Shown here: in pieces, positions 3,953 to 54,427 of the stretch | Layout: every line of letters begins with the position of its first letter | How positions within the stretch are numbered: the first letter of the stretch is position 1 | Assembly (NCBI GenBank): GCA_020630805.1 | Contig: JAHDIM010000002.1 | Span: forward strand, 641 to 64,640 | Direction of reading: 5' to 3' | From: Anaerolineales bacterium | GTDB taxonomy: Bacteria > Chloroflexota > Anaerolineae > Anaerolineales > UBA6668 | DNA length: 64,000 nucleotides | The notes under the pieces: generated by a model | What the model saw: the letters and a program-made list of their open reading frames with translations, nothing else | Database searches by the model: none | Told to the model about the DNA's origin: nothing | Made by a program: the position numbers and the translations under genes

Positions 3953-4933
3953 CTAGGCGCTAATTGTTGACAACTTTGTCATTGCTGATTCTTCTAGGTC
4001 GGCAAGTTGGTGCAGTAGCGGCACAACACTGTTTAGGGATGCTATGCCATTGTCAGGAACTGCCATAAAACCGTTTGCAACCGCCGTCCAAAGTGGGGCA
4101 GCTTCGGCAATTTCGTCGCGTGCTGCTTCAAGGTTCGGGTGTTGCAAATGTTCCATTGCTTCTGTTAGGAAATCACGGTAGAAGTTTCGGAACAAGGCGC
4201 CACCAGTGCCAGCGTGTTCCATCAGCATTCCCATTGTGTAGAACTCATTGGGCGCAACTGTTTCGACCCAGGTGGGGAGCACTTTTGCTGTTTTGCGAAT
4301 TCCTTTTGCGCCTAAATTGTGAATTGGCGGATTGAGATACGTCTCGGCATTGTTGACAATGGCAGCTTGAATAACGGCTGGCCAATCCATTGATTTGTTT
4401 GGAACGGTAATGGTCCAAGTCTGCCCATTGGGTGCCATTGAACCTTTCCAGAGGCGTCCTTCGGCAAACTTTTCACGATCCGTTTTCATCACGCTGCCTT
4501 GCTGTGACGTATCTGCGACGTAGACAAAGTCATCGTCATACCCGTGCATTGCAACATAGTGTCCACCAAAATGGATTTTAGTTGTGAAATAGTCCAGATA
4601 GTAACAATCGACCCGTACAGCAACGGGCTGTCCGGCATCAATGAAAGTGGCGACGTTTTCCCAAGCGCGTTTCTTGGAGCTTGTTTTTCGAAAATCTAGC
4701 TCAAGGTCAAGATTGCGTGCTAGGGTTTCGGTGAGTTCATTGGGCCGTGGACGACCGCCAATAAATGGTGCTGGCATGCTTTTGAAATTGAACATGCCAT
4801 AGCTCAATCCTTCACCCAGACCAAATAACATCGGCTCGCTAAGCTCGAAGCCAGCATGCTTTAGCAAATTGCCAGTCGCATTAGTTTCACAATGCATGCC
4901 CGGAAATGGAACGAAATTTTCAACCTGGCTCAC
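3953..4933 (-). CDS. BtrH_N (peptidase-C39-like) / DUF4872 family protein
   Basis: 326 aa. The N-terminal FPGMHCETNATGNLLKHAG matches the conserved Cys motif of the butirosin BtrH N-terminal domain family. The GTG start overlaps the padR stop (GTGA). Confidence 0.7.
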   Translation of the reverse strand: MSQVENFVPFPGMHCETNATGNLLKHAGFELSEPMLFGLGEGLSYGMFNFKSMPAPFIGGRPRPNELTETLARNLDLELDFRKTSSKKRAWENVATFIDAGQPVAVRVDCYYLDYFTTKIHFGGHYVAMHGYDDDFVYVADTSQQGSVMKTDREKFAEGRLWKGSMAPNGQTWTITVPNKSMDWPAVIQAAIVNNAETYLNPPIHNLGAKGIRKTAKVLPTWVETVAPNEFYTMGMLMEHAGTGGALFRNFYRDFLTEAMEHLQHPNLEAARDEIAEAAPLWTAVANGFMAVPDNGIASLNSVVPLLHQLADLEESAMTKLSTISA

Positions 4934-5475
4934 GCTGTCGTCTCCTCTAACTGTTGAATGGTGTCAGCAAGCCAATTTAGTTGGGCGGTAACGATGGTAA
5001 GGCTGTACTGATACATCATCGTTACATGTGTAGGCAGTGGGGCGCTGGATTGTGCTGCTTTGAGGTCAGCCAGCCGTTCTATAAGTCCAGCTTGGTGTTG
5101 CTTCAGTGCATCTACTGCGTCATCCGTGCTCAGGCTCGGTAAATTGGCGAGTCCAAGCTGTACGGGGGGATAAGCACGATGCGGCGTGCTAAGCGCCTTA
5201 ATTGTTGCTGCTTGGCACGCTTGCTTGCCTGCCTCGGTCGCTTCATAGATTTTGCGAGCTGGGCCGCGACCGGCTACAACTTGCGTTTGGCTTTGCACAA
5301 AGCCTGACTTTTCCAATTTCTTGAGTAAATAGTAGATCGAGGAAAAACCGACTTCGGTCCAATTGCGCATGCCACGCTCTTCAATTACCTGTTCAATCTC
5401 ATACCCATGACGGGAGTGTTCAACAATCAGGCTTAGGATTGCAAATTCAGCGTTCGTTATTTTATAGTCTGGCAT
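4930..5475 (-). CDS. PadR-family transcriptional regulator
   Basis: 181 aa. The winged-helix region AILSLIVEHSRHGYEIEQVIEERGMRNWTEVGFSSIYYLLKKLEKSGFV is typical of PadR. Confidence 0.85.
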   Translation of the reverse strand: MPDYKITNAEFAILSLIVEHSRHGYEIEQVIEERGMRNWTEVGFSSIYYLLKKLEKSGFVQSQTQVVAGRGPARKIYEATEAGKQACQAATIKALSTPHRAYPPVQLGLANLPSLSTDDAVDALKQHQAGLIERLADLKAAQSSAPLPTHVTMMYQYSLTIVTAQLNWLADTIQQLEETTA

Positions 5476-14311: not shown

Positions 14312-14776
14312 TTATTGCAAGACAAATTCTTGGACCTTAGGGACGAAAGGGTTGATTGGAAACGTCTCCACTTGGGTCAGATCAACACTAGTTGTTAGAA
14401 CGTTGTCCCACGCCAATGCGACTTCTCGCATTTGGTCAATAATGCTGTCGCGGGTTTCACGCTCGAACTTATTCTGAGATTGCCAGCGATTGGTGTAGTT
14501 GAAGCCTGCAACCAAAATCCCCGAAATGGCATAGTGCACTTCGTATGGAAGTTCACGGGTTATGTAATCTTCCGTTTGTGGGTTATGTGCTTCTTCAATA
14601 ACAGCTAAGCATTCCAGAATTTCTTTGATATGAGGTTTAGTGTCGATGCGTTTGTTAGAAATGTCTGCGCAATGGAGTGCATATACAAAACTGCGGTCTG
14701 AATGAGGGTGCCCATTAATCTTCCCAGCAGGATTGGCATGCTCTTGTAAACGAGTTATTGCATCTGTGTAATTCAT
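14312..14776 (-). CDS. Hypothetical protein
   Basis: 154-aa clean ORF. No motif recognised. Confidence 0.55.
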   Translation of the reverse strand: MNYTDAITRLQEHANPAGKINGHPHSDRSFVYALHCADISNKRIDTKPHIKEILECLAVIEEAHNPQTEDYITRELPYEVHYAISGILVAGFNYTNRWQSQNKFERETRDSIIDQMREVALAWDNVLTTSVDLTQVETFPINPFVPKVQEFVLQ

Positions 14777-18000: not shown

Positions 18001-19701
18001 TTACCAAAGATCGTCAATCGCAGATTTTGTTTTTTCTGCGACTTCTTCTTCATCTAAAAATCCAACAGCTTTATAGAGATTTTCGTCATAATCACGCGTG
18101 CGGATGACAACTGGCATTGGCACTGCATGTCCCAAGATGAGGGCCTGTTGCTGCGTGTCTAAGCGTGCCAGAACTTCCCGCAACGCGCTTGCGCCGCTAA
18201 CGCCTGAAAAGACGGCCCGAATGTCCGCTTCATTGTCTAGCAAGGCGGTTACGCGCGTGCCAATTTGGCTCATGACTTCGTCATCAATTCCGCTAGGGCG
18301 TTGATCCACGACCAAGAGCGTGACGTTGTATTTACGCAACTCGCGTGCGATTGTGCCAAAAATAGTATGCTTGGCAATTTCTGGGTCCAAGAATTTATGC
18401 GCTTCTTCAATGACAATCATCAATGGCTTAGGTTGAGCGTCTTTACTGCCAACGGCATCGTTTTTGGCTTGTACATAGCGCGCGTGGACGCGGCGCGTCA
18501 AATAATTTGCCACGAGCATGTAAGCAGGTAAATTGTCGCCATGCTTCCCAAATTCGAGCACAATACTCGTCCCGCGCTGTAACTTTTCAAAGATCTCGCC
18601 AACGACGTTATTGCTGGCCTGTGGCACGAGGAAATCCATGCGGCGGAACAGCTCAAACTTACGTTGAATAGCGCTCAATGTGCCTTTGACGAGCATACCT
18701 TCATCAATAATTTCATCGATTTCGGGGCTGCCATTTTCGTCTAGCAATTTTGCAACCCATTGTTTGCCCAACTTGCGATGCAAATAGTACAGTGCACCAG
18801 TTTGGACGTCGGACAGATTGAGCATGCTGCTAAGCATTTCAACATCTGCCGGCTCAATGTCGGAGTATTGAATTTGCAATTCCCCTGAGATGCGATTATT
18901 GCGCGCCAACGACGTTTTCTTATCCAGCGTATAGATATGTGGACGGTTGTTGCCAAGGATCTGAGTTAGCCCTTTCCAAGTCTTGCCACGTTCATTCGTA
19001 ATTTCCCAGCCATAGTCACTGTGCATGTCAAAGATCAGACAAGATGCTTTTTGCTTGGCAATGACTGCTGCTAGGAGCGTTCGCGTAATAAAAGATTTCC
19101 CGGTCCCTGACTTCCCAAATACCCCCGAAGACCGCTCAACAAAGCGATCTAGGTTCAAATTGACTTTGACTTCGTCCATATCTAACGGTGAGCCGATATA
19201 GAAATGATCGTCATCTTCTTCGCCAAAAACTTGATTGACATCATCTTCGGTCGCTTCAAATACAGGCGAAAAGTGGGCTGGAATTGTTTTGTTTGGTCGC
19301 GGCTCTTTGTCGTCCGGATCTAACACCAACATCGGCGAGATATTGGCGCGTCCATACGCCATCGTCGCCCGATAGATGTCAGACAAAAATGGGCTTGAGA
19401 CAGGTGGAGGCGTCTGTTCAATTGCGGGATTGGTGTTATCCAGAATGATGTCCGTCACAATTGAAAAGAACTTGCGCGCAGTTAGGCCTTTGGCAACCAC
19501 ATAACGACCAACCGCCATATTTTCGATAGTCTTGCCTGCATCTAGTCCGCTGTCTAGTTTGACCGTCAGTCCTTTCGAAAGTGAACCGCCAACAACCACG
19601 CCAAGCCGCACGCGGGCTGCGTCTTCTTCTGCTTCAATGTCTAAGCCAATTGGGTTGTTGTCTTCATCCCGTGGCAGAAAGTCGTCTAGTTCATCACTCA
19701 T
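18001..19701 (-). CDS. herA: HerA-family (FtsK/HerA superfamily) hexameric ATPase/translocase
   Basis: 566 aa. The N-terminal segment looks like a HAS barrel (RLGVVVGGSLSKGLTVKLD...VGRYVVAKG). Walker A is GVFGKSGTGKSF and Walker B is LMIVIEEAHKFL. The HerA-typical VVDQRPSGIDDEVMSQIGTRV is present. The ATGA overlap couples it to the upstream ORF. Confidence 0.85.
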   Translation of the reverse strand: MSDELDDFLPRDEDNNPIGLDIEAEEDAARVRLGVVVGGSLSKGLTVKLDSGLDAGKTIENMAVGRYVVAKGLTARKFFSIVTDIILDNTNPAIEQTPPPVSSPFLSDIYRATMAYGRANISPMLVLDPDDKEPRPNKTIPAHFSPVFEATEDDVNQVFGEEDDDHFYIGSPLDMDEVKVNLNLDRFVERSSGVFGKSGTGKSFITRTLLAAVIAKQKASCLIFDMHSDYGWEITNERGKTWKGLTQILGNNRPHIYTLDKKTSLARNNRISGELQIQYSDIEPADVEMLSSMLNLSDVQTGALYYLHRKLGKQWVAKLLDENGSPEIDEIIDEGMLVKGTLSAIQRKFELFRRMDFLVPQASNNVVGEIFEKLQRGTSIVLEFGKHGDNLPAYMLVANYLTRRVHARYVQAKNDAVGSKDAQPKPLMIVIEEAHKFLDPEIAKHTIFGTIARELRKYNVTLLVVDQRPSGIDDEVMSQIGTRVTALLDNEADIRAVFSGVSGASALREVLARLDTQQQALILGHAVPMPVVIRTRDYDENLYKAVGFLDEEEVAEKTKSAIDDLW

Positions 19702-20288
19702 AGCAAGGCCTCCAAGCGGCGCAGAATGGTGTCAAGGCGTTGGAAGTCATTTCCAATGAGTTGCGCTAAGTATTGTCCTGCAAAGCGCAAATATTGCGCC
19801 GGATTTGGATGCGTCGCTGCTGCCTGCTCTAATACGCGTACCAAGAGTTCATCAACCGGAGTGTCGCTGGCTTGCATAATCAAGCGCAGAAAATTGAAAT
19901 CATCGGTGAGCGCTGCGATTTCGGTGTTTTCACAGAGACGAATGGTGTCTAGCGTCAACGGCGGTTGAGGCGGTAACCCAGAACGCACAGATGTGCCTTG
20001 CATGTAACCAAGAGTCAAAACGCTTACCTCAATAGGCATTTGGCGCTGGCGCTGATCCAGAATGATTTCTGGCGGTGTTTCTGGCGTTGCCACAATTTGG
20101 CGCACCAATTCATCCTCTTCTAGGACAATGTCATAGATTGTGCCAATGGCTTGCGCCGTTCCGTTTTGGATTGGGACTTTCACAAATGCGCCAAAGTGTG
20201 GCATTTCTGGTTTGGGAATTGCGCAGCCAAAACTGAACCCACGGATGGAGCTTTGCAGCAACTGCCCAATTTGAATAGCAGTGGTCAT
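19698..20288 (-). CDS. Uncharacterised 196-aa protein encoded between nurA and herA
   Basis: A clean ORF with a 2-nt gap after the nurA stop and a 4-nt overlap with the herA start. Its N-terminal ~60 aa (IGQLLQSSIRGFSFGCAIP...FGAFVKVPIQNGTAQAIGTIYDIVLEED) follow a small beta-barrel pattern like the HerA HAS barrel. The C-terminal half looks helical. Confidence 0.7.
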   Translation of the reverse strand: MTTAIQIGQLLQSSIRGFSFGCAIPKPEMPHFGAFVKVPIQNGTAQAIGTIYDIVLEEDELVRQIVATPETPPEIILDQRQRQMPIEVSVLTLGYMQGTSVRSGLPPQPPLTLDTIRLCENTEIAALTDDFNFLRLIMQASDTPVDELLVRVLEQAAATHPNPAQYLRFAGQYLAQLIGNDFQRLDTILRRLEALL

Positions 20289-20290
20289 AA

Positions 20291-21523
20291 TTAGCGACGT
20301 TTCCCTTTTCGTTGATAGCGTCGAGCTTTGCCTTTCATAGCAAGTTTTGCCGATTTATTTGGCACAATATTGTGTTTCAGTAATTCACGGGTGAGCATGT
20401 TTTCAACCACTTGACGGTCTTGGGATTGAATAACAGCCTCTCCGTCCGCACGGGCTAGCGCATATGGGTAGTGAGATCCAGCTGTATATTGCGATTGATG
20501 GACTAAGGCAGCATGGAGGGAATTGATCAATTCTGAATTGTTGGCAACCCATTCTGGAACCTCAACGCGTACAACGACTGGTGAGTCGGTCATACTGACG
20601 TTCAGGTAAAAAATGTGAACGCTGTGCGTTGTATTTGGATGGTCTGGTGCGCGGCGTTGCTGATAGGGAATATTCCAGCCGGAAATCGTTTCAAATAGTG
20701 CTGAACGCTCTCCAGGGCCTAAATGTTTTTGGAACATGGCGCGGTCTGACAAGCCGCCAAAGACAGGTGTATTGTCTTCAAGTACGGCGTCAATTTCATC
20801 TAGTTCAAAGCTAGCGAGCCACAGCAAGTTGAGCACGCTGCTGCCTCCAGGCTGGTCCACATAGCCAGCTAAGGCACAATGACACGCCGCTAAGCGATCA
20901 ATGGCTTTGAGATGCCGATTATAGAGATGGTCTGTCTCCCGCTTTGAAATGCCTTCACCCTGTGTCCGCAGCGCAATTGGACCATCAATTAGACTGATGA
21001 CAGCTGTGTCCTGACTCGACTCGACTTCTAACGAGAGTTCGGTCAGCCCTTCCATTTCTGCCACTGTCCGTCGTAGATTGACAAGCGGAACAGTAATCAT
21101 GCGTCCATCAACAATCACATCGCTTTCCTCAGCCCCTAACACAGTGGTTTTGACAACGGAGGGTGCTTGTCCTGAGCCAATTTGAATGATGAACGCCCCA
21201 ATGTTGATGAGGTAATACTGGAGCGCAGAGTGCTTGTCAGGATAGATCTGCGAGCCATCCACCGCGATGACTGTGGCGTTGGGTGATGGGGCGCTGGGCA
21301 GTGGAAATGTCGCCGCAATAGGTTCGCGGGTGGGCTTAGCGCCAGTCCAAGTCTTAGACGCAGCAGCCTTTTCGACTTTTGCGTGCAGATCTTTGGTGTT
21401 ATCGACGACTTGAAGCTGCGCTAATGCAGCGGGAATCAACTTGCCTTGACTGTTAATGCGACCCGCAATTGCTGCGCCCGCATCTTGAATTTGTAAGGTC
21501 AAGTCTTGAATATTTATACTCAT
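20291..21523 (-). CDS. nurA: NurA-domain nuclease
   Basis: 410 aa. It has NurA-type acidic motifs VIAVDGSQIYPD and ISLIDGPIAL and a basic C-terminal tail KGKARRYQRKGKRR. It is the first gene of the three-gene cassette. A TATAAT (21549-21544, minus strand) sits 20 nt upstream of the ATG. Confidence 0.8.
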   Translation of the reverse strand: MSINIQDLTLQIQDAGAAIAGRINSQGKLIPAALAQLQVVDNTKDLHAKVEKAAASKTWTGAKPTREPIAATFPLPSAPSPNATVIAVDGSQIYPDKHSALQYYLINIGAFIIQIGSGQAPSVVKTTVLGAEESDVIVDGRMITVPLVNLRRTVAEMEGLTELSLEVESSQDTAVISLIDGPIALRTQGEGISKRETDHLYNRHLKAIDRLAACHCALAGYVDQPGGSSVLNLLWLASFELDEIDAVLEDNTPVFGGLSDRAMFQKHLGPGERSALFETISGWNIPYQQRRAPDHPNTTHSVHIFYLNVSMTDSPVVVRVEVPEWVANNSELINSLHAALVHQSQYTAGSHYPYALARADGEAVIQSQDRQVVENMLTRELLKHNIVPNKSAKLAMKGKARRYQRKGKRR

Positions 21524-21628
21524 GTCTCAGAACGTGTGTTCTTATTATACGAGATACTAAGTAATTCAGATAGGGAGTACCTCTATTTGCAAGACAAGTT
21601 ATGCCACTGCAAGTCACGAGTTGCGCTT

Positions 21629-21646
21629 TTATAACGGACTTATAAC
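21629..21646 (+). promoter_or_regulatory. Direct-repeat box 1: TTATAAC-ggac-TTATAAC
   Basis: A 7-nt direct repeat in 11-bp register. The extended 24-nt context TTTTATAAC-NN-ACTTATAACACCT is identical, apart from the NN, to box 2. It lies 106 nt upstream of the nurA ATG on the other strand. Confidence 0.45.
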
Positions 21647-21654
21647 ACCTCGTG

Positions 21655-21886
21655 TAATATTTTTCGTTATACTTTCGCGGCATCATCAATGTTGTAGTGG
21701 GTCGAGGCGCAACTGCGGGTTTACCGAGAGAGGCGTTGACGCTGAGATGGGCAACGGGACAGTTTTCAATAGCGGTAACTTAGAAATGTTCCACAGTGAA
21801 AAGTTACTGGGCAGTGGACTATGATGTACTGAGGTCTTCTGACCCCGGAAAGGCGCGTTTCGACTGAAGCGGGCCTTTTGCTTTTT
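21655..21886 (+). ncRNA. Candidate ~230-nt terminated transcript (unit A of a duplicated structured-RNA-like module)
   Basis: It starts near TAATAT (21655-21660). It contains a hairpin followed by CCGAGAGAGG (21724-21733) and the conserved segment TTTTCAATAGCG...TGGGCAGTGGA (21763-21818) with stem GTAACTT/AAGTTAC. It ends in a hairpin plus T-run. The overlapping ORFs (21621-21824 plus strand, 21686-21907 minus strand) are antisense to each other and have no recognisable motifs. Confidence 0.35.
21849..21886 (+). terminator. Intrinsic terminator closing unit A
   Basis: AAAGGC-g-CGTTTC-gact-GAAGCG-g-GCCTTT forms 12 bp with one G/G mismatch and is followed by TGCTTTTT. Confidence 0.6.
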
Positions 21887-21916
21887 AACAGCCTCGGACC
21901 ACTTCACACAAACGTT

Positions 21917-21934
21917 TTATAACAAACTTATAAC
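21917..21934 (+). promoter_or_regulatory. Direct-repeat box 2: TTATAAC-aaac-TTATAAC
   Basis: Same box as 21629-21646. A TATAAT lies at 21957-21962, 18 nt after the extended box. Confidence 0.45.
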
Positions 21935-21962
21935 ACCTTTGCTAAAGTTCTGTCCTTATAAT

Positions 21963-22426
21963 GACCTGCGACACAAACTGGAGTAGCTTACGCAACGTTA
22001 AAGGTTTAGATGCGGCAATCTCAATTGCCGAGAGAGGGTCTAAGTCAAGTCATCGCTAATGACAATTTGGCCTGCGTAAATACTTCTGCTTTTTCGATCT
22101 GCAAAATGCTTGTAACGTCAAGCGAAATAGCATGCACATGGCGTTTGTTGACAGTGTGACGTGACGTAGAGAGGCGTCTGGTTCTCAATTGTCTGCGAAT
22201 GGTCAATAGTTGATTGCTGATGTTGCTGAATATGTTCAGCAGAGAGAGACATTAGCAAGGTTACTCATTTTCAATAGCGATAGCCTAGACAACGCTCTGA
22301 ACAGAGAGGTTATTGGGCAGTGGATGAGTAAAGCGATCTAACTGTATGTTATGTCAATGGCGTGACACGTATTTGTAGGCGAATTGCTTGAGTATTCAAC
22401 CCTGTTACGAGAATGCGAAGGTAGTT
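21963..22426 (+). other. Long structured 5-prime leader candidate (unit B) of the LysM-FAS1 gene
   Basis: It contains the hairpin CGGCAAT/ATTGCCG followed by AGAGAGG (22013-22037), and hairpin+AGAGAG(G) units ending near 22174, 22248 and 22309. The conserved segment at 22268-22324 has stem ATAGCCT/AGGTTAT. It runs into the GAAGG RBS at 22417-22421. Confidence 0.35.
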
Positions 22427-23734
22427 ATGAGATTGCTTACTAAAATGAAGCGACAGATAAGTGTGCTCTTGGTAGTACTAGTAGCAATGTTTGCTACACC
22501 GGTGTTAGCAGCCCCGGTGGAGCAAAGTGCGCAGAACGGAACAACTGAATATGAAGTGCAACCGGGTGACAATTTATCACACCTCGGACGCCGGTTTGGG
22601 ATGCACCCAAGTGTCATTATTGGCGCGAACCCGCAACTCATCTTTCGTCCTAATGTGCTAATTCCCGGCGAAACGTTGATTATTCCGGGCGTTCACTATG
22701 CAGGCGGCGATTCCATTGCGGACGTCATTGCAGGCGACTCGCGGTTGTCAACGTTCCTTATTGCAGCCCGCACAGCGGAATTGCTAGATGATTTAGATTA
22801 TGTCGGACGATACTCCGTATTTGTCCCAACGAATGCAGCATTCCAACAATTGTCATCAAGTGCACGTGGTGATTTGTTGAATGATCTTGCGTTTATGAAC
22901 ACTATGGTTCAACACCATATTGTGCCGGAACGGTATGACATGGCAGCGTTGAGCTCCGTAAGCGCAATTCCAACTTATGGCGGTGGTAGCCTCATTGTGA
23001 ACGTGGCCGGTCCAAACGGCACGGTCAATGGTGTGCCGATCAATGTGTTGGAAATGATTGAAACTGCAAATGGCGTTGTCTATGTTATCCCAGCAGTACT
23101 CCCTCTTCCAGACGGAGTTGAAGTTTCCACTAATGGAGCCACAATTGATTTTGCGTCAACGTTCGATGTAGATCGGGCGTCCGGTGCAGCTGAAGTGGTG
23201 ACCAGTGCCGTGGAAACTGAAAATGCTGTAGAAAATGAAGTGTTAGGAGTAGAGTTGCCAACGGCGCAGCCAACTCCGGCTAGTCAGTCTTCACAGTCCT
23301 TGACTGTGGTGACAGCCAGTTCTTCAGGTAGCAATATGTTAGTTGCACCCGGCTCAGTCGTTCTAAGCTGTGGCTCAATGTCAGTCTCTTTGGCGAATGT
23401 GCTTAGCACATTGTCAGGGCCAATGGCAGTGGAGTCAGTGCGTGTCGCGCACGTGCATTATCATCGTGGATATAGTAGTGGTAGCGCGGAGGCTTGTGTC
23501 ACCTTCCGAGCAGATATTGTTGGTGGAGAAGGCGCGCACAGCATCAAGGTCAATAACGTTCCGGTTGTTGCCCGCAATGCGCACATTGCGTCTCGCGCTG
23601 ACGGTGACCATGGCGAGATTGAATTTGACGTGTTAGCAGACTGCAATCAAGCGTACTCATTTGCTTTCACAGTTGAAAGTGGAGATGGACAACAAGCGAC
23701 ACACGTGTTCAATCACTTCATTCCTTGCCCGTAG
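22427..23734 (+). CDS. Secreted LysM + fasciclin (FAS1) domain protein with uncharacterised Cys-containing C-terminal domain
   Basis: The ATG at 22427 is preceded by GAAGG. Signal peptide: LLVVLVAMFATPVLAAP. LysM: YEVQPGDNLSHLGRRFG...GETLIIPG. FAS1: RYSVFVPTNAAFQQL...VQHHIVPERY...ANGVVYVI. The track start at 22388 is a TTG that adds 13 residues ahead of the signal peptide. Confidence 0.8.
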   Translation: MRLLTKMKRQISVLLVVLVAMFATPVLAAPVEQSAQNGTTEYEVQPGDNLSHLGRRFGMHPSVIIGANPQLIFRPNVLIPGETLIIPGVHYAGGDSIADVIAGDSRLSTFLIAARTAELLDDLDYVGRYSVFVPTNAAFQQLSSSARGDLLNDLAFMNTMVQHHIVPERYDMAALSSVSAIPTYGGGSLIVNVAGPNGTVNGVPINVLEMIETANGVVYVIPAVLPLPDGVEVSTNGATIDFASTFDVDRASGAAEVVTSAVETENAVENEVLGVELPTAQPTPASQSSQSLTVVTASSSGSNMLVAPGSVVLSCGSMSVSLANVLSTLSGPMAVESVRVAHVHYHRGYSSGSAEACVTFRADIVGGEGAHSIKVNNVPVVARNAHIASRADGDHGEIEFDVLADCNQAYSFAFTVESGDGQQATHVFNHFIPCP

Positions 23735-26344: not shown

Positions 26345-26689
26345 TTAGTTTGCCAATTGTCCTGAATGAATGCTGCTCATTGCCTCAACTTCGGCGGCTA
26401 ATTCCTTTTGCTGTGAAGGACTTAGCGTATGCCATTTGCCAACAATCTGACGCAAGGTTGGATCAGGTCGGAGTAACCCAAGAACATCATAAACTTCTGG
26501 TCCTAAGGTTTCTGCTAAGTTGTCGACGTGACGACCAGCAGGCACAACTTTCCCGTTCATCCAGCGGCTTAGGTTAGCGCCACTTGTGTTGAGGTGATCT
26601 GCAAAGTGGCTGGCGGACTTTCCATGGTCGCGCTGCTTTTGCCACTCTTCATATTTCTCTTGTAACCAGCGACTAAATGAGATAGACAT
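26345..26689 (-). CDS. XRE-family helix-turn-helix transcriptional regulator
   Basis: 114 aa. The HTH region reads SASHFADHLNTSGANLSRWMNGKVVP. A TACAAT (26701-26696, minus strand) ends 6 nt before the ATG. Confidence 0.72.
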   Translation of the reverse strand: MSISFSRWLQEKYEEWQKQRDHGKSASHFADHLNTSGANLSRWMNGKVVPAGRHVDNLAETLGPEVYDVLGLLRPDPTLRQIVGKWHTLSPSQQKELAAEVEAMSSIHSGQLAN

Positions 26690-26738: not shown

Positions 26739-26756
26739 TTATAACAGACTTATAAC
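26739..26756 (+). promoter_or_regulatory. Direct-repeat box 3: TTATAAC-agac-TTATAAC (plus a degenerate third unit CTGTAAC at 26762-26768)
   Basis: Same 7+4+7 architecture as boxes 1 and 2. It lies 50-67 nt upstream of the XRE gene ATG, between the lacZ-like stop and the XRE start. Confidence 0.45.
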
Positions 26757-26828
26757 GCAACCTGTAACGCCAATCAAACAAGCGTTATCTTAAAGAACTC
26801 AGTGATCTTAATCTAGCTTGAGATCGGG

Positions 26829-46128: not shown

Positions 46129-46163
46129 TGTTGCGATTGGTAAATTGCATTTATAAGTGAGTT

Positions 46164-47297
46164 ATGAAGATTAAGAATAATTATCGAAAAACGATTGTTG
46201 GGGCGCTCTTGGCTGCACTGGTCAGCGTTCTCGCAATTCCGGTGTTTGCCCAATCTGGTGGCAGTCCCGTCATTCGTGCGCAATGTGTGGCAAATGTCGC
46301 TACTGTTGAATGGAGCGGTTTCTTTGGCGGACGTTACTCAGAAGCGGTTTCTATCTACATCAATGACAAAGTTGTTGCGAGTGGAATGGGCACCTTTGGC
46401 ACGTTGCAAAAAGATGTGCGGACATTGGACAAGATCCAAGCGGATGCGCCAAAGCAAATTACTGTAAAAGCTTATGGCTCTAAAACAGGCTTTGTAGAAG
46501 CAGCGCCTGTAAGTTGTACAACGCAACCGACGTTACCGGCTGACACGCAACCTGCTGCGACAACCAACCAATTTGCACCGTCTGCTGATGTAAACACGGC
46601 GCCAATTGCACTGCAAGATGAACATGGCAATACGCCGGTTGTGGACAACGCGAGCCACAGTGTAGGCACGCAGTTCTCGCGAACAGACCCACCTTGGAAT
46701 CCGGGGTTCTTTGACATCATTCGCGCCCGTGCCATCTCGACGGCGACAGGCGTTCCTGTACCAGTAATTTTGGATCAGTTCCGCCATGACTATGTCACCA
46801 ATGTTGATCGTGGGGAATTGGAAGTTGCCTTCTATGAATCGCTGCGCATCTTCTGTTACCCTCCAGGCTACGTTGAAGTTTGGTACACAGATAATAAGCG
46901 TGAAGATGGTGCCAGCGCCATGGTGGCACAGTTCCATATTGCGTTTATTGCACAGCAGGGCGACGTTACGTTGCCAGCGCAAGACGGTGGGTTCCTGACC
47001 ATTCGCCACGTTGGAGATGACATCACAATTGTGGGTGCTGGGTCGTCAAAGACCATTCCATTTAGTGCTTGTCTAGAATCAGCGCGTGTGACGAAAGAAA
47101 CTATCCCGCAGATGACGTGTAATGCAGACGCAGTGGTGCAACAACAAGCCCTAATCGCGGATCAGCAAGCGTATGTCGCGAAGTTGGAACCGGTCAAGAC
47201 CGCTGTTGCAACCCGTGACGAATATGCAAACGCAAGCGCACATCTTGTGAAATTGCAGAATGGGCTGACTGCGTTACAAGCTGGCTGTTCACAATAA
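46164..47297 (+). CDS. Secreted protein of unknown function (last gene of the efflux cluster)
   Basis: 377 aa. The signal peptide is IVGALLAALVSVLAIPVFAQ. No recognised domain. It starts 35 nt after the adaptor gene. Confidence 0.7.
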   Translation: MKIKNNYRKTIVGALLAALVSVLAIPVFAQSGGSPVIRAQCVANVATVEWSGFFGGRYSEAVSIYINDKVVASGMGTFGTLQKDVRTLDKIQADAPKQITVKAYGSKTGFVEAAPVSCTTQPTLPADTQPAATTNQFAPSADVNTAPIALQDEHGNTPVVDNASHSVGTQFSRTDPPWNPGFFDIIRARAISTATGVPVPVILDQFRHDYVTNVDRGELEVAFYESLRIFCYPPGYVEVWYTDNKREDGASAMVAQFHIAFIAQQGDVTLPAQDGGFLTIRHVGDDITIVGAGSSKTIPFSACLESARVTKETIPQMTCNADAVVQQQALIADQQAYVAKLEPVKTAVATRDEYANASAHLVKLQNGLTALQAGCSQ

Positions 47298-47376: not shown

Positions 47377-47952
47377 ATGATTGAACTTGCTCAAAAAATA
47401 CGAGACCACGGGACTTACCTTGGCAATGGGATTCTGAAAGTCGATGGCTTCTTGAATCATCAAATTGATGCTGGCTTGATGTATCGTGCTGGTCAAGAGT
47501 TTGCAAAGCGCTTTGTGACCACTTCTCCTGACATCATTCTGACAGCTGAAATTTCAGGGATTGCTCCAGCGGCAATGGCGGGCTTGGCAATGAATGTTCC
47601 GGTTGTCTATGCACGCAAACATCGACCGATTACGATGCCAGAAAACGTCTACACGTCGTCTGCACCTTCCCACACGAAAGGCAAGATTGTGCAGTTGATG
47701 GTCTCCCCAGAATTTCTGAAAGCTGATCAACGCGTGCTGATTATTGATGACTTCCTCGCGACTGGGAAAACCTTGAACGGCCTCGTTGATATTGTCAGTC
47801 AAGCAGGGGGCGATCTCGTCGGGATTGGTGCGGTGATTGAGAAAAGTTTTGAAGGCGGACGCGAGATGCTGACAAAGCTAGGGGTCCAAATTGAGAGCCT
47901 AGCCATTATTGACTCTTTGTCAGACGCAGGCATTGAGGTACGGGCGGGCTAA
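47377..47952 (+). CDS. xpt: Xanthine phosphoribosyltransferase
   Basis: 191 aa. It has ILKVDGFLNHQIDAGLM and the PRPP motif VLIIDDFLATGKT. Confidence 0.88.
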   Translation: MIELAQKIRDHGTYLGNGILKVDGFLNHQIDAGLMYRAGQEFAKRFVTTSPDIILTAEISGIAPAAMAGLAMNVPVVYARKHRPITMPENVYTSSAPSHTKGKIVQLMVSPEFLKADQRVLIIDDFLATGKTLNGLVDIVSQAGGDLVGIGAVIEKSFEGGREMLTKLGVQIESLAIIDSLSDAGIEVRAG

Positions 47953-53134: not shown

Positions 53135-53685
53135 TAGACAAGCTCAGCGGTGTTGACGACGGTTGCAAATTCGTTGTGTAAGCTAGCCAGCGCCACAGAA
53201 TGGATAGTATCAGCATCAAAGTGCGTGCCATCATACCCATCTCGGGCATGGGCGGCAGTTGCATCTCCGACCAAGATAGTGTCAAATCCCAAGTTACCAG
53301 CACTGCGCGTGGTCGTGCTGACACAATGGTTGGTGGTGAGCCCACAAATGACGACTTGCGCAATCTTCTTTGCGCGCAAATGATCTTCCAATTCTGTTCC
53401 AATAAACGCACAATTGACGCTTTTGGTGAAATGCGGTTCGCTGGGCAGTGGTTCAAATCCGTCTTTTAGCGCTGAACCTGGTTTTTCGGGGCGCAGCGGT
53501 GAGTTAGGTTCGACCGACAGATGCTGAATATGAACGACGGGGCGCTTTGCGGCACGCCACGCAGCTAACAGTTTGAGACAATTTTCTTCCGCTGCCGGAT
53601 TGTTGCGTTCTCCTAATTTTGGGTCATCTAATCCTTTTTGGATGTCAACCAAGATCAGGGCGGTGTTATTTGTCACTGTTGGCAT
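53134..53685 (-). CDS. Isochorismatase-family cysteine hydrolase
   Basis: The ATG at 53685 is preceded by GAGGAG. The sequence has ALILVDIQ, a K at FTKSV, and the catalytic-Cys context [12 protein letters not shown]. The track start at 53718 is less well supported. Confidence 0.85.
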
Positions 53686-54427
53686 TTGCAACTCCTCGCG
53701 CTTGTTTTGCAGCGTCAATTACTTTCAAGTCTTGCTTGGAAAGTTCAACTAAGTCTAATAACTCAGGACGGCGTTCTAAGGTGCGCAATAGCGCTTGATC
53801 CCGTCGCCAGCGTTGGATGTTGGCATGATGTCCGGAGGTCAAGATTTCTGGAATACCCCATTCGCGGTACACCGGCGGACGCGTGTACTGCGGATATTCC
53901 AACAGCCCGACCTCACTATGACTGTCATCATGCGTTGCGGTTGGATCACCAAGAACGCCAGGTAGCAACCGCGTGACTGCATCAGTAATCGCTAAGGCTG
54001 GAAGCTCACCGCCGGTCAAGACAAAGTCTCCGAGCGAAAGCTCATGAGTCACAAGATTGTCGCGCACCCGTTCATCGATGCCTTCATAGCGTCCGCAGAG
54101 CAAGGCAAACTTGGGCCATTTCGTCATTTCACGCGCGATGGACTGCGTAAATGGCTGCCCTTGGGGGGTCACCATGATCAGCGGTGATTCAAATTGTTCA
54201 CCTAATACGCTCTCAACAGCATTGAAGATCGGTTCAGGTTTCATCAGCATTCCGCCGCCGCCGCCGTAGGGGGTGTCATCCGTGACTTTGTGCTTGTCTG
54301 TGGCATAGTCTCGAATGTTGTGAACCTCGACATTGACGGCTCCCATTTCATGCGCGCGCTTCATAATGCTGGCTTGCAAATAGGGCATACAAACATCGGG
54401 GAAAAGTGTGAAAATGTCGATCTGCAT
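53666..54427 (-). CDS. trmD: tRNA (guanine37-N1)-methyltransferase
   Basis: 253 aa. It begins [10 protein letters not shown] and has [24 protein letters not shown] and [14 protein letters not shown]. Confidence 0.93.

Follow-up and report, generated by a model that had tools for sequence, protein, structure and literature searches.

What is encoded in the 903 nt that separate two divergently oriented genes on contig JAHDIM010000002.1 of an Anaerolineales bacterium, and why do related elements occur there twice? The stretch of DNA analysed, referred to as the window, is 64 kb long, and the gap in question (21524-22426) lies between NurA (20291-21523, minus strand) and a plus-strand gene for a protein with LysM and fasciclin (FAS1) domains, LysM-FAS1. 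The original prediction saw in this gap a tandemly duplicated module resembling structured RNA, and it offered two alternatives, either a small terminated RNA followed by a related cis-acting leader of the gene that starts at 22427 or one long leader. We favour the first. Two paralogous structured units do lie on the plus strand as predicted; what has to be given up is the notion of one repeated RNA, since a box found in front of both units seems to be a shared operator or activator site, which makes them separate transcription units. It is thus probable that the gap holds two paralogous plus-strand transcription units with conserved structure. On sequence comparison, this pair of structured RNAs, which share a DNA operator, is real and conserved, and it had not been classified before.

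Comparison was possible with two other genomes. When 185,579 species genomes were scanned with the LysM-FAS1 protein, two true relatives (L001 and L002) were identified, both metagenome-assembled genomes (MAGs) of Anaerolineales (Chloroflexota), whose proteins share 90% and 67% amino acid identity, respectively, with that of the window. The DNA covered consists of the window and a 13-kb locus from each relative. Both loci keep the same layout, with NurA on the minus strand, a box followed by unit A and its terminator, a box followed by unit B, and finally LysM-FAS1. Searches of 5.8 billion proteins with LysM-FAS1, NurA and a nearby helix-turn-helix (HTH) protein returned no close relatives outside these three MAGs, and beyond them NurA homologues are at most 41% identical. 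Three distant Anaerolineae NurA loci carry neither the module nor the box nor a cluster of the AGAGAGG motif described below. Because the protein searches return three genomes and the distant NurA loci lack these elements, the feature is, as far as public sequence data show, limited to one small clade, and this restriction accounts for its having been missed by comparative pipelines.

The structural evidence is most extensive for a segment that is present in both units and that we refer to as the 3' domain (56 nt in A and 57 nt in B; repeat families D3 and D4). Repeat finding and folding recovered in place everything that had been listed for the gap, namely the boxes, the pair of AGAGAGG motifs, this segment, a 7-bp helix within it, and a hairpin with a T-run. 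The helix reads GTAACTT/AAGTTAC in A and ATAGCCT/AGGTTAT in B, so that two pairs differ on both sides and one differs on a single side with pairing retained. These paired substitutions turned out to be genuine, with the segment kept in the relatives and the helix covarying among six copies. In the alignment of these six copies (alignment A6), a helix P1 of 8 pairs is stacked on a helix P2 with 3 aligned pairs (3-7 bp in the individual copies). Pairing is observed in 98.5% of cells, compared with 32-55% in slid controls; changes on both sides are found in 5 of the 11 pairs, and none of 500 shuffles matched the observed pairing or covariation. The RNA could be assigned to the plus strand because G-U pairs occur at three positions; read from the complementary strand, these would become A-C mismatches. 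A 5' internal loop, AGA(C)AAYG, is conserved, and hardly any variation is seen in the flanks UUCAAUAGCG and (U)GGGCAGUGG. The six copies were also used to build a covariance model (R1), which scores them at 70-85 bits and finds nothing else above 12 bits in the window, L001, L002 or a metagenome contig (L012) that is discussed below. Copies from A and copies from B cluster separately in alignment A6, and on this grouping A and B had already been duplicated when the three genomes diverged.

These substitutions bear directly on the idea that the gap has no function at the RNA level and consists of a duplicated promoter and leader, or of small open reading frames (ORFs). Such an idea is not without appeal, as ORFs of 43-73 amino acids are present in the gap and the units are clearly duplicates of each other. 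However, the two ORFs that had been named as a possible coding alternative (21621-21824 and 21686-21907) are not conserved: L001 has only frame-split fragments of them, broken by 1- and 2-nt indels (alignment A1), and L002 has nothing. Compensatory changes keep the helices both between paralogues and between genomes, and both copies persist even though the duplication predates the divergence of LysM-FAS1 to 67% identity. The coding alternative is rejected on the ORF comparison, and a gap lacking any RNA-level function is very improbable.

The box itself was originally taken to open each RNA unit. Its two copies (21627-21650 and 21915-21938) are identical at 22 of 24 positions (repeat family D1), and they most likely represent a shared DNA operator or activator site that lies outside the RNA. 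This follows from its fixed spacing to the -10 hexamer, from the point past the -10 at which conserved sequence resumes, and from the existence of a third copy to which no RNA unit is attached. The core, TTATAAC-N4-TTATAAC, consists of two half-sites with an 11-bp period, one helical turn apart, and as with other operators it is held at a fixed distance from the -10 and reused at several promoters. Three perfect cores are found in the window; when up to two mismatches are allowed there are 7 matches where 0.16 would be expected. All six promoters (two units in three genomes) share the same order of elements: the box, a spacer of 21 nt (A) or 22 nt (B), TATACT or TATAAT, 6 nt, and the conserved start. 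The exact core of box A is also found at 5203-5220 in L001 and 5120-5137 in L002, in each case 21 nt from the -10. Upstream of the box the sequence is not conserved across the three genomes, and conservation picks up exactly 6 nt past the -10, with GCATCAT in A and CGACACA in B. A -35-like hexamer is lacking because the second half-site covers about -40 to -34, an arrangement that would fit a class-II activator or an operator overlapping the -35 region.

Transcript starts are predicted near 21680 and 21969. The distance between the -10 and these starts is the same as in the many apparently leaderless genes of the window, and it is this match to their TAnAAT, 6-8 nt, ATG spacing on which the two positions are based. 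As an observation in its own right, the arrangement of TAnAAT, 6-8 nt and a start codon, with no Shine-Dalgarno (SD) sequence, precedes many genes (for example 4930-5475, 26345-26689, 47377-47952 and 53666-54427), and SD-like motifs precede only a minority of the ORFs in the window. Leaderless mRNAs therefore appear to be common in the source genome.

The third box, which again has a perfect core, precedes the -35 of a divergent gene for an HTH protein by about 14 nt. This gene is itself apparently leaderless (TAAACA, 17 nt, TACAAT, 6 nt, ATG), and its product is 98% identical in L001 and 88% identical in L002. Judging from the common box, a single transcription factor is probably behind all three promoters. 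Two further observations concern the box. The roughly 70 nt from the third box to the stop codon of lacZ (26757-26828) are unusually conserved in the three genomes, for example in TCTTAAAGAACTCA, and contain no -10 at the spacing of the RNA A and RNA B promoters. A weaker box-like site with two mismatches, TTTATAAGTGAGTTATGA (46150-46167), is in the opposite orientation; the start codon that it overlaps belongs to the gene at 46164-47297, which encodes a protein with a signal-peptide-like N-terminus. This site may be due to chance.

Downstream of its promoter, unit A has the attributes of a small RNA (sRNA) with an intrinsic terminator, that is, a promoter of its own, a G+C-rich hairpin followed by a U-tract, and no conserved ORF. 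It is conserved in the three genomes from GCATCAT onward, and its plus strand folds better than its minus strand. The stem of the terminator contains several double changes (RNAalifold consensus pairs 173-202), and the U-run is present in all three genomes, so that the sequences lend good support to an RNA of about 207 nt that ends at this terminator. Given the covariation of that stem among the three genomes, and a separate promoter for unit B, one long leader is disfavoured. At its 5' end, RNA A carries GCAUCAU, which is able to pair with AUGAUGU at 21821. Module A1 contains CGAGAGAGG, which is invariant in the three genomes, surrounded by stems that vary (GCG/CGC, GGC/GCC and AUUC/GAAU). 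A stretch of this module, TTACCGAGAGAGG (21721-21733), matches TTGCCGAGAGAGG (22025-22037) in unit B, the shared part being TT(A/G)CCGAGAGAGG (repeat family D6).

Unit B, on the other hand, is not separated from the LysM-FAS1 coding sequence by a conserved terminator in any of the three genomes, and for this reason it is most simply read as the 5' leader of the LysM-FAS1 mRNA. Its fold has a z-score of -2.17 relative to shuffled sequences on the plus strand, as opposed to -0.47 on the minus strand. When the sub-domains of unit B were folded separately for each genome, the same architecture was obtained from different stem sequences in each of the three. The closing stem of the 5' domain, for example, is UUACGCA/UGCGUAA in the window, UUUAUGCU/AGCAUAAA in L001 and CUUUCC/GGAAAG in L002. 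Inside this domain, module B1 has an outer stem (UUUAGAU/GUCUAAG), an inner hairpin (22012-22030) and AGAGAGG (22031-22037) in an internal loop on the 3' side. The terminal loop of B2 comprises 6, 8 or 10 nt among the three genomes, on stems unrelated in sequence (each segment folded alone), and the outer stem of B3, 9-14 bp long, is likewise unrelated in sequence among the window, L001 and L002 while the architecture is kept. Three additional hairpins followed by AGAGAG(G) had been proposed for unit B. Those near 22168 and 22241 are present; the AGAGAG at 22303 is base-paired in the 3' strands of P2 and P1 of the 3' domain and is not a free motif. After the 3' domain comes a non-conserved spacer of 60-80 nt, and then a hairpin predicted to sequester the SD sequence of LysM-FAS1, whose pairs 470-474/506-510 are invariant in the three genomes and which was recovered when each segment was folded alone. 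The features of both units and of the genes associated with them are collected in Table 1.

Table 1. Features of the two RNA units, their promoters and the associated genes (positions in the window)
Feature	Position	Strand	Description	Basis or remark
Operator box A	21629-21646	+	TTATAACGGACTTATAAC; about -51 to -34 relative to the predicted start	No -35 hexamer
-10 hexamer of RNA A	21668-21673	+	TATACT (TATAAT in L002)	Invariant T-A-T-A-x-T, alignment A1
RNA A	21680-21886	+	Free-standing small RNA, ~207 nt	Predicted start GCAUCAU; ends at terminator U-run
Module A1	21715-21743	+	Hairpin GCGGGUUUACCG, AGAGAGG (21727-21733), second hairpin GGCGUUGACGCU	Three genomes
3' domain, copy A	21763-21818	+	UUUUCAAUAGCG, P1 (21774-21781/21801-21808), AGAAAUG 5' internal loop, P2, UGGGCAGUGGA	83.6 bits, covariance model R1
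Predicted intrinsic terminator of RNA A	21849-21886	+	12-bp interrupted stem, then UUUUGCUUUUU	Minimum free energy and centroid structures
Operator box B	21917-21934	+	TTATAACAAACTTATAAC	22 nt upstream of TATAAT in three genomes
-10 hexamer of RNA B	21957-21962	+	TATAAT	Invariant, alignment A2
RNA B	21969-22426	+	Probable 5' leader of LysM-FAS1 mRNA, ~460 nt	Predicted start CGACACA; conserved modules, three genomes
Leader 5' domain with module B1	21980-22086	+		Covarying closing stem
Module B2	22163-22178	+	Hairpin GACGU-AGAGAG-GCGUC, AGAGAGG in terminal loop	Unpaired probability 0.86-1.0
Module B3	22214-22258	+	Outer stem UUGCUGAUGU/ACAUUAGCAA, inner hairpin 22225-22240, unpaired AGAGAGAGA 22241-22249
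3' domain, copy B	22268-22324	+	P1 22279-22286/22307-22314, P2 within 22295-22306	78.8 bits, covariance model R1
Predicted SD-sequestering hairpin	22384-22425	+	Conserved UUGCUU, paired with AAGGUA in the ribosome-binding site of LysM-FAS1	RNAalifold
LysM-FAS1	22427-23734	+	Secreted LysM and fasciclin (FAS1) protein, 435 amino acids	Pfam PF01476, PF02469
HTH protein	26345-26689	-	Cro/C1-like HTH protein, 114 amino acids	HTH_31/HTH_3 below threshold; 4.3 kb from the units
Third operator box	26739-26756	+	TTATAACAGACTTATAAC	Conserved: L001 10213-10230, L002 10191-10208

What the two RNAs have in common besides the 3' domain is the motif AGAGAGG, of which A carries one free copy and B three. Chance alone would place about 2-4 copies on each strand of the window, anywhere. 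The 4 copies observed are all on the plus strand and all within 21680-22426, and CCTCTCT does not occur. Restriction of the motif to these RNAs is complete in the window (4 of 4 in 64 kb), in L001 (4 of 4 in 13 kb) and in L002 (5 of 5 in 13 kb), with none on the opposite strand. In partition-function folds, 10 of the 12 free copies (A1, B1, B2 and B3 in each genome) have an unpaired probability of about 0.55-1.0, whereas the whole RNAs average 0.35-0.40. The exceptions are A1 of L002 (0.31) and B3 of L001 (0.13), so that the motif of B3 is predicted unpaired in the window and in L002 and paired in the full-length fold of L001. The AGAGAG hexaloop of B2 in the window raised the question of dual hexaloops of the ANTAR type, which was dismissed as the loop measures 8 and 10 nt in L001 and L002.

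Do these elements belong to a known family? With Rfam at gathering thresholds, no match was obtained in the whole 64-kb window, the lysM-associated motifs, c-di-AMP, 6S, SRP, RNase P, tmRNA and CsrB/Rsm families included, which bears out the earlier statement that the gap resembles no known riboswitch or housekeeping RNA. At E<=10, the only matches within 21450-22500 were SNORD121A and HOTAIR, both eukaryotic and at the level of chance. The literature likewise provided no direct match to the motif or to non-coding RNAs of Anaerolineae.

The nearest resemblance in sequence is to the binding site of PyrR, for which the consensus is ARUCCAGAGAGGYU (PMC7430163), and in which the purine core (C)AGAGAGG is also shown in a loop between helices. 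In favour of the units being canonical PyrR attenuators (RF00515), AGAGAGG is the very centre of that consensus; moreover, A1 of L001 can form GUC-GAGAGA-GGC, resembling the upper stem of the PyrR site, and a further copy in L002 (B4, AAACCAGAGAGGCU) matches the consensus at 13 of 14 positions. This copy is base-paired, however, and the flanks of the modules otherwise depart from the consensus (mostly GCCG-AGAGAGG-R). A genuine pyr leader, that of Bacillus velezensis (L133), gave RF00515 sites of 57-72 bits with the same tool, the gathering threshold being 54 bits, and there the model shows a hairpin in which AGUC/GGCU closes a CAGAGA hexaloop, with UAAA bulged on the 5' side and CCUUU/AAAGG as the lower stem. 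This is in contrast to the modules described here, which lack the CAGAGA hexaloop with its GUC/GGC closure as well as the UAAA bulge and the CCUUU/AAAGG stem, and which display AGAGAGG in internal loops on the 3' side in A1, B1 and B3 and, in B2, in terminal loops that measure 6, 8 or 10 nt. No RF00515 match was found at E<=10 in 21450-22500, nor in the best PyrR-like copy taken alone (L002 5765-5850). The gene downstream is not a pyr gene and no pyr gene adjoins; none of ten window ORFs of 150-200 amino acids that were scanned corresponds to PyrR. With structure, covariance score and genomic context all against it, membership in this family was rejected, and it is extremely unlikely that the units are PyrR attenuators.

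A second protein with a taste for such sequences is Hfq of Bacillus subtilis, which selects (AG)n>=2 tracts, binds (AG)nA and was crystallised with AGAGAGA (PMC3287200). AGAGAGA is also the minimal binder obtained by systematic evolution of ligands by exponential enrichment, and the distal-face sites of Gram-positive Hfq are like the present motif in being unpaired (AG)3-type tracts; the motif here differs from them in its invariant terminal GG and its flanking helices. In the literature, PyrR-like and Gram-positive-type Hfq-like proteins are the only documented bacterial binders of AGAGAG-type sequences that we found. A PyrR-like protein is a possible reader of the purine loop.

Other comparisons concern logic more than sequence. 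CsrB and RsmZ repeat GGA motifs for CsrA, and the sponges of Hfq/Crc, such as CrcZ, are A-rich. As in these sponges, a short single-stranded motif is repeated here on stem-loops, and a terminated sRNA has a dedicated transcription factor site; again as in these systems, the motif also occurs in the leader of a presumably regulated mRNA near its ribosome-binding site. The differences lie in the AGAGAGG motif itself, in the small number of free copies, from only 1 (A) to 3 (B), and in the additional large conserved 3' domain, to which the sponges have no counterpart. GGA follows AGAGAGG in some copies only, unlike the many loop-borne GGA motifs of CsrB/RsmZ-type sponges. Decoys of the GlmY/GlmZ and EutX (Rli55) type work by titration: a protein that acts on one RNA is bound away by a second, which is a homologue or mimic of the first. 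Here, too, there are two related, co-regulated RNAs of which one could titrate a factor acting on the other, with the difference that the second RNA would be an mRNA leader acting in cis; there is no similarity in sequence or structure, and the decoy role is our own proposal. By analogy, the CsrB/RsmZ and CrcZ sponges and the GlmY/GlmZ decoy pairs come closest in overall logic, without any sequence relationship.

Instead of binding a protein, an exposed motif might bind another RNA. RNA A, and perhaps a processed form of RNA B, would then be a trans-acting base-pairing sRNA in which the AGAGAGG loops and their flanks serve as seeds or as mimics of an SD sequence for the 16S tail. The conserved segments are indeed exposed and single-stranded, the hairpin and U-tail of RNA A are typical of sRNAs, and on reasoning alone AGAGAGG can pair with CCUUUCU. 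However, a perfect target, CCTCTCT, occurs 0 times on either strand of the 64 kb, and SD sequences are few in this genome. The sole long complementarity is of 12 nt and lies within the NurA coding sequence (21294-21305), where CTGGGCAGTGGA is identical to the 3' flank of the conserved domain of unit A, which makes the NurA mRNA perfectly complementary to it; the match is absent from L001 and L002 and is probably due to chance for that reason. Identical motifs on elaborate scaffolds are, moreover, more typical of protein sponges, and we consider base pairing in trans quite improbable.

The main rival is that both units are riboswitches for a metabolite or an ion. The 3' domain would be the aptamer, with unit A acting as a termination switch or as a "decoy aptamer" and unit B acting on translation through the SD hairpin. 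In its generic features the 3' domain is of the right kind, as it has a conserved unpaired core framed by the covarying helices P1 and P2, together with invariant unpaired flanks and a conserved internal loop, and it is followed by a terminator in A and by an SD-sequestering hairpin in B. Furthermore, lysM genes are known to bear lineage-specific leaders of this kind: the lysM-Actino, lysM-TM7 and lysM-Prevotella motifs are lineage-restricted candidate cis-regulatory leaders from three phyla for which no ligand has been identified (PMC5737381). Unit B is similar to these in being a lineage-restricted structured 5' leader of a lysM-domain gene and dissimilar in that it is found in Chloroflexota, is far longer and modular, and has a free-standing paralogous sRNA. 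Against a riboswitch, inspection revealed no mutually exclusive pairing of the 3' domain with the terminator or the SD hairpin, and in B the non-conserved spacer stands between the domain and that hairpin. A riboswitch would also leave the AGAGAGG modules, which are the bulk of unit B, without a role, and it has neither an Rfam match nor more than a single gene association behind it. On balance, we regard this reading as unlikely.

We are thus led back to a co-regulated pair of decoy sRNA and leader, both binding one factor. One transcription factor would switch on RNA A, RNA B with LysM-FAS1, and the HTH gene. A trans-acting factor common to both RNAs, most probably an RNA-binding protein, would recognise the AGAGAGG loops and perhaps the 3' domain as well; on the leader it would set either the translation of LysM-FAS1, by way of the SD hairpin, or the stability of the RNA. 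RNA A would be a co-expressed decoy or buffer that titrates this factor, as it carries the same sites as the leader. That the units bind a protein or a ligand at all is something we infer, and the whole reading is put forward tentatively, at slightly less than an even chance.

Several points weigh against it. The covariation is based on 3-6 sequences from three related genomes, and P0, a long-range helix in unit B and the SD hairpin, being invariant in these genomes, are uninformative in this respect. The junction-like conserved nucleotides of the 3' domain could equally well belong to a small-molecule pocket or to a protein site, and AGAGAGG could act by base pairing, for example with the candidate 16S 3' tail CCUUUCU. 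Both starts, the terminator and the read-through into LysM-FAS1 are predictions from sequence. As for the regulator, the HTH protein is one candidate for binding the box by adjacency only; the half-sites of the host boxes form a direct repeat, and this would fit a response regulator of the OmpR/PhoB type equally well.

Searches beyond the three loci yielded candidates that did not stand up. A metagenome search for the box followed at 70-100 nt by CGAGAGAGG matched a single contig, Ga0181606_10001199 (L012), and as far as the RNA is concerned the match is due to chance because CGAGAGAGG falls within a coding sequence there. Degenerate anchors taken from the 3' domain matched viral sequences at least 120 times; each of these matches looks like chance, and the 80 loci listed score at most 21 bits with model R1. 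Contig L012 is of some interest for another reason. It is phage-like: besides many small genes it encodes a primase-helicase and a C5 DNA methyltransferase, and between 5315 and 9497 and at 14330 it has about 11 copies of a palindromic box, TTATAAC-N3-GTTATAA (22 matches, 0.18 expected). These copies lie 1-20 nt upstream of the ribosome-binding site or start of successive genes and are oriented with them, reminiscent of the "stoperators" of mycobacteriophages. A tblastn search found no homologue of the HTH protein of the window in L012.

On the NurA side of the gap, a GAAC-N4-GTTC palindrome of the Gram-positive LexA (Cheo-box) type, AGAACGTGTGTTCT (21529-21542), is situated between the -10 of NurA (TATAAT, minus strand, 21544-21549) and its start codon. 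It is also found in L001 (about 5092-5105, with identical arms) and in L002 (about 5058-5071, AGAACACGCGTTCG, with a changed spacer), and it was not seen at the three distant Anaerolineae NurA loci examined. Its position suggests SOS control of an operon made up of NurA, a protein of about 196 amino acids, and HerA (18001-21523). This gene order is kept in the distant Anaerolineae L134, L136 and L138; the middle protein has no match in Pfam or NCBIfam.

Anaerolineales are mostly uncultured and, to our knowledge, almost nothing is known of RNA-based regulation in Chloroflexota. The boldest form of our proposal, which we think rather unlikely, is that of a new class of sponge RNA built on AGAGAGG loops, in which a paralogous leader competes for one protein, a PyrR-like nucleotide sensor or an (AG)n-binding Hfq. 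The state of this protein would be linked to how much of the secreted LysM-fasciclin protein, with its envelope or adhesion role, is made, and one transcription factor would switch the whole through TTATAAC boxes. The restriction to three MAGs limits how far any of this can be generalised. If the proposal is true, the locus would offer a compact and tractable case of a decoy sRNA and a paralogous leader that share a promoter operator and protein-binding modules, with a defined DNA operator and a candidate regulator at hand. Its AGAGAGG motif would be one not used by known sponge systems, and Chloroflexota would become the fourth phylum in which unexplained structured leaders stand ahead of lysM-domain genes of the cell envelope.

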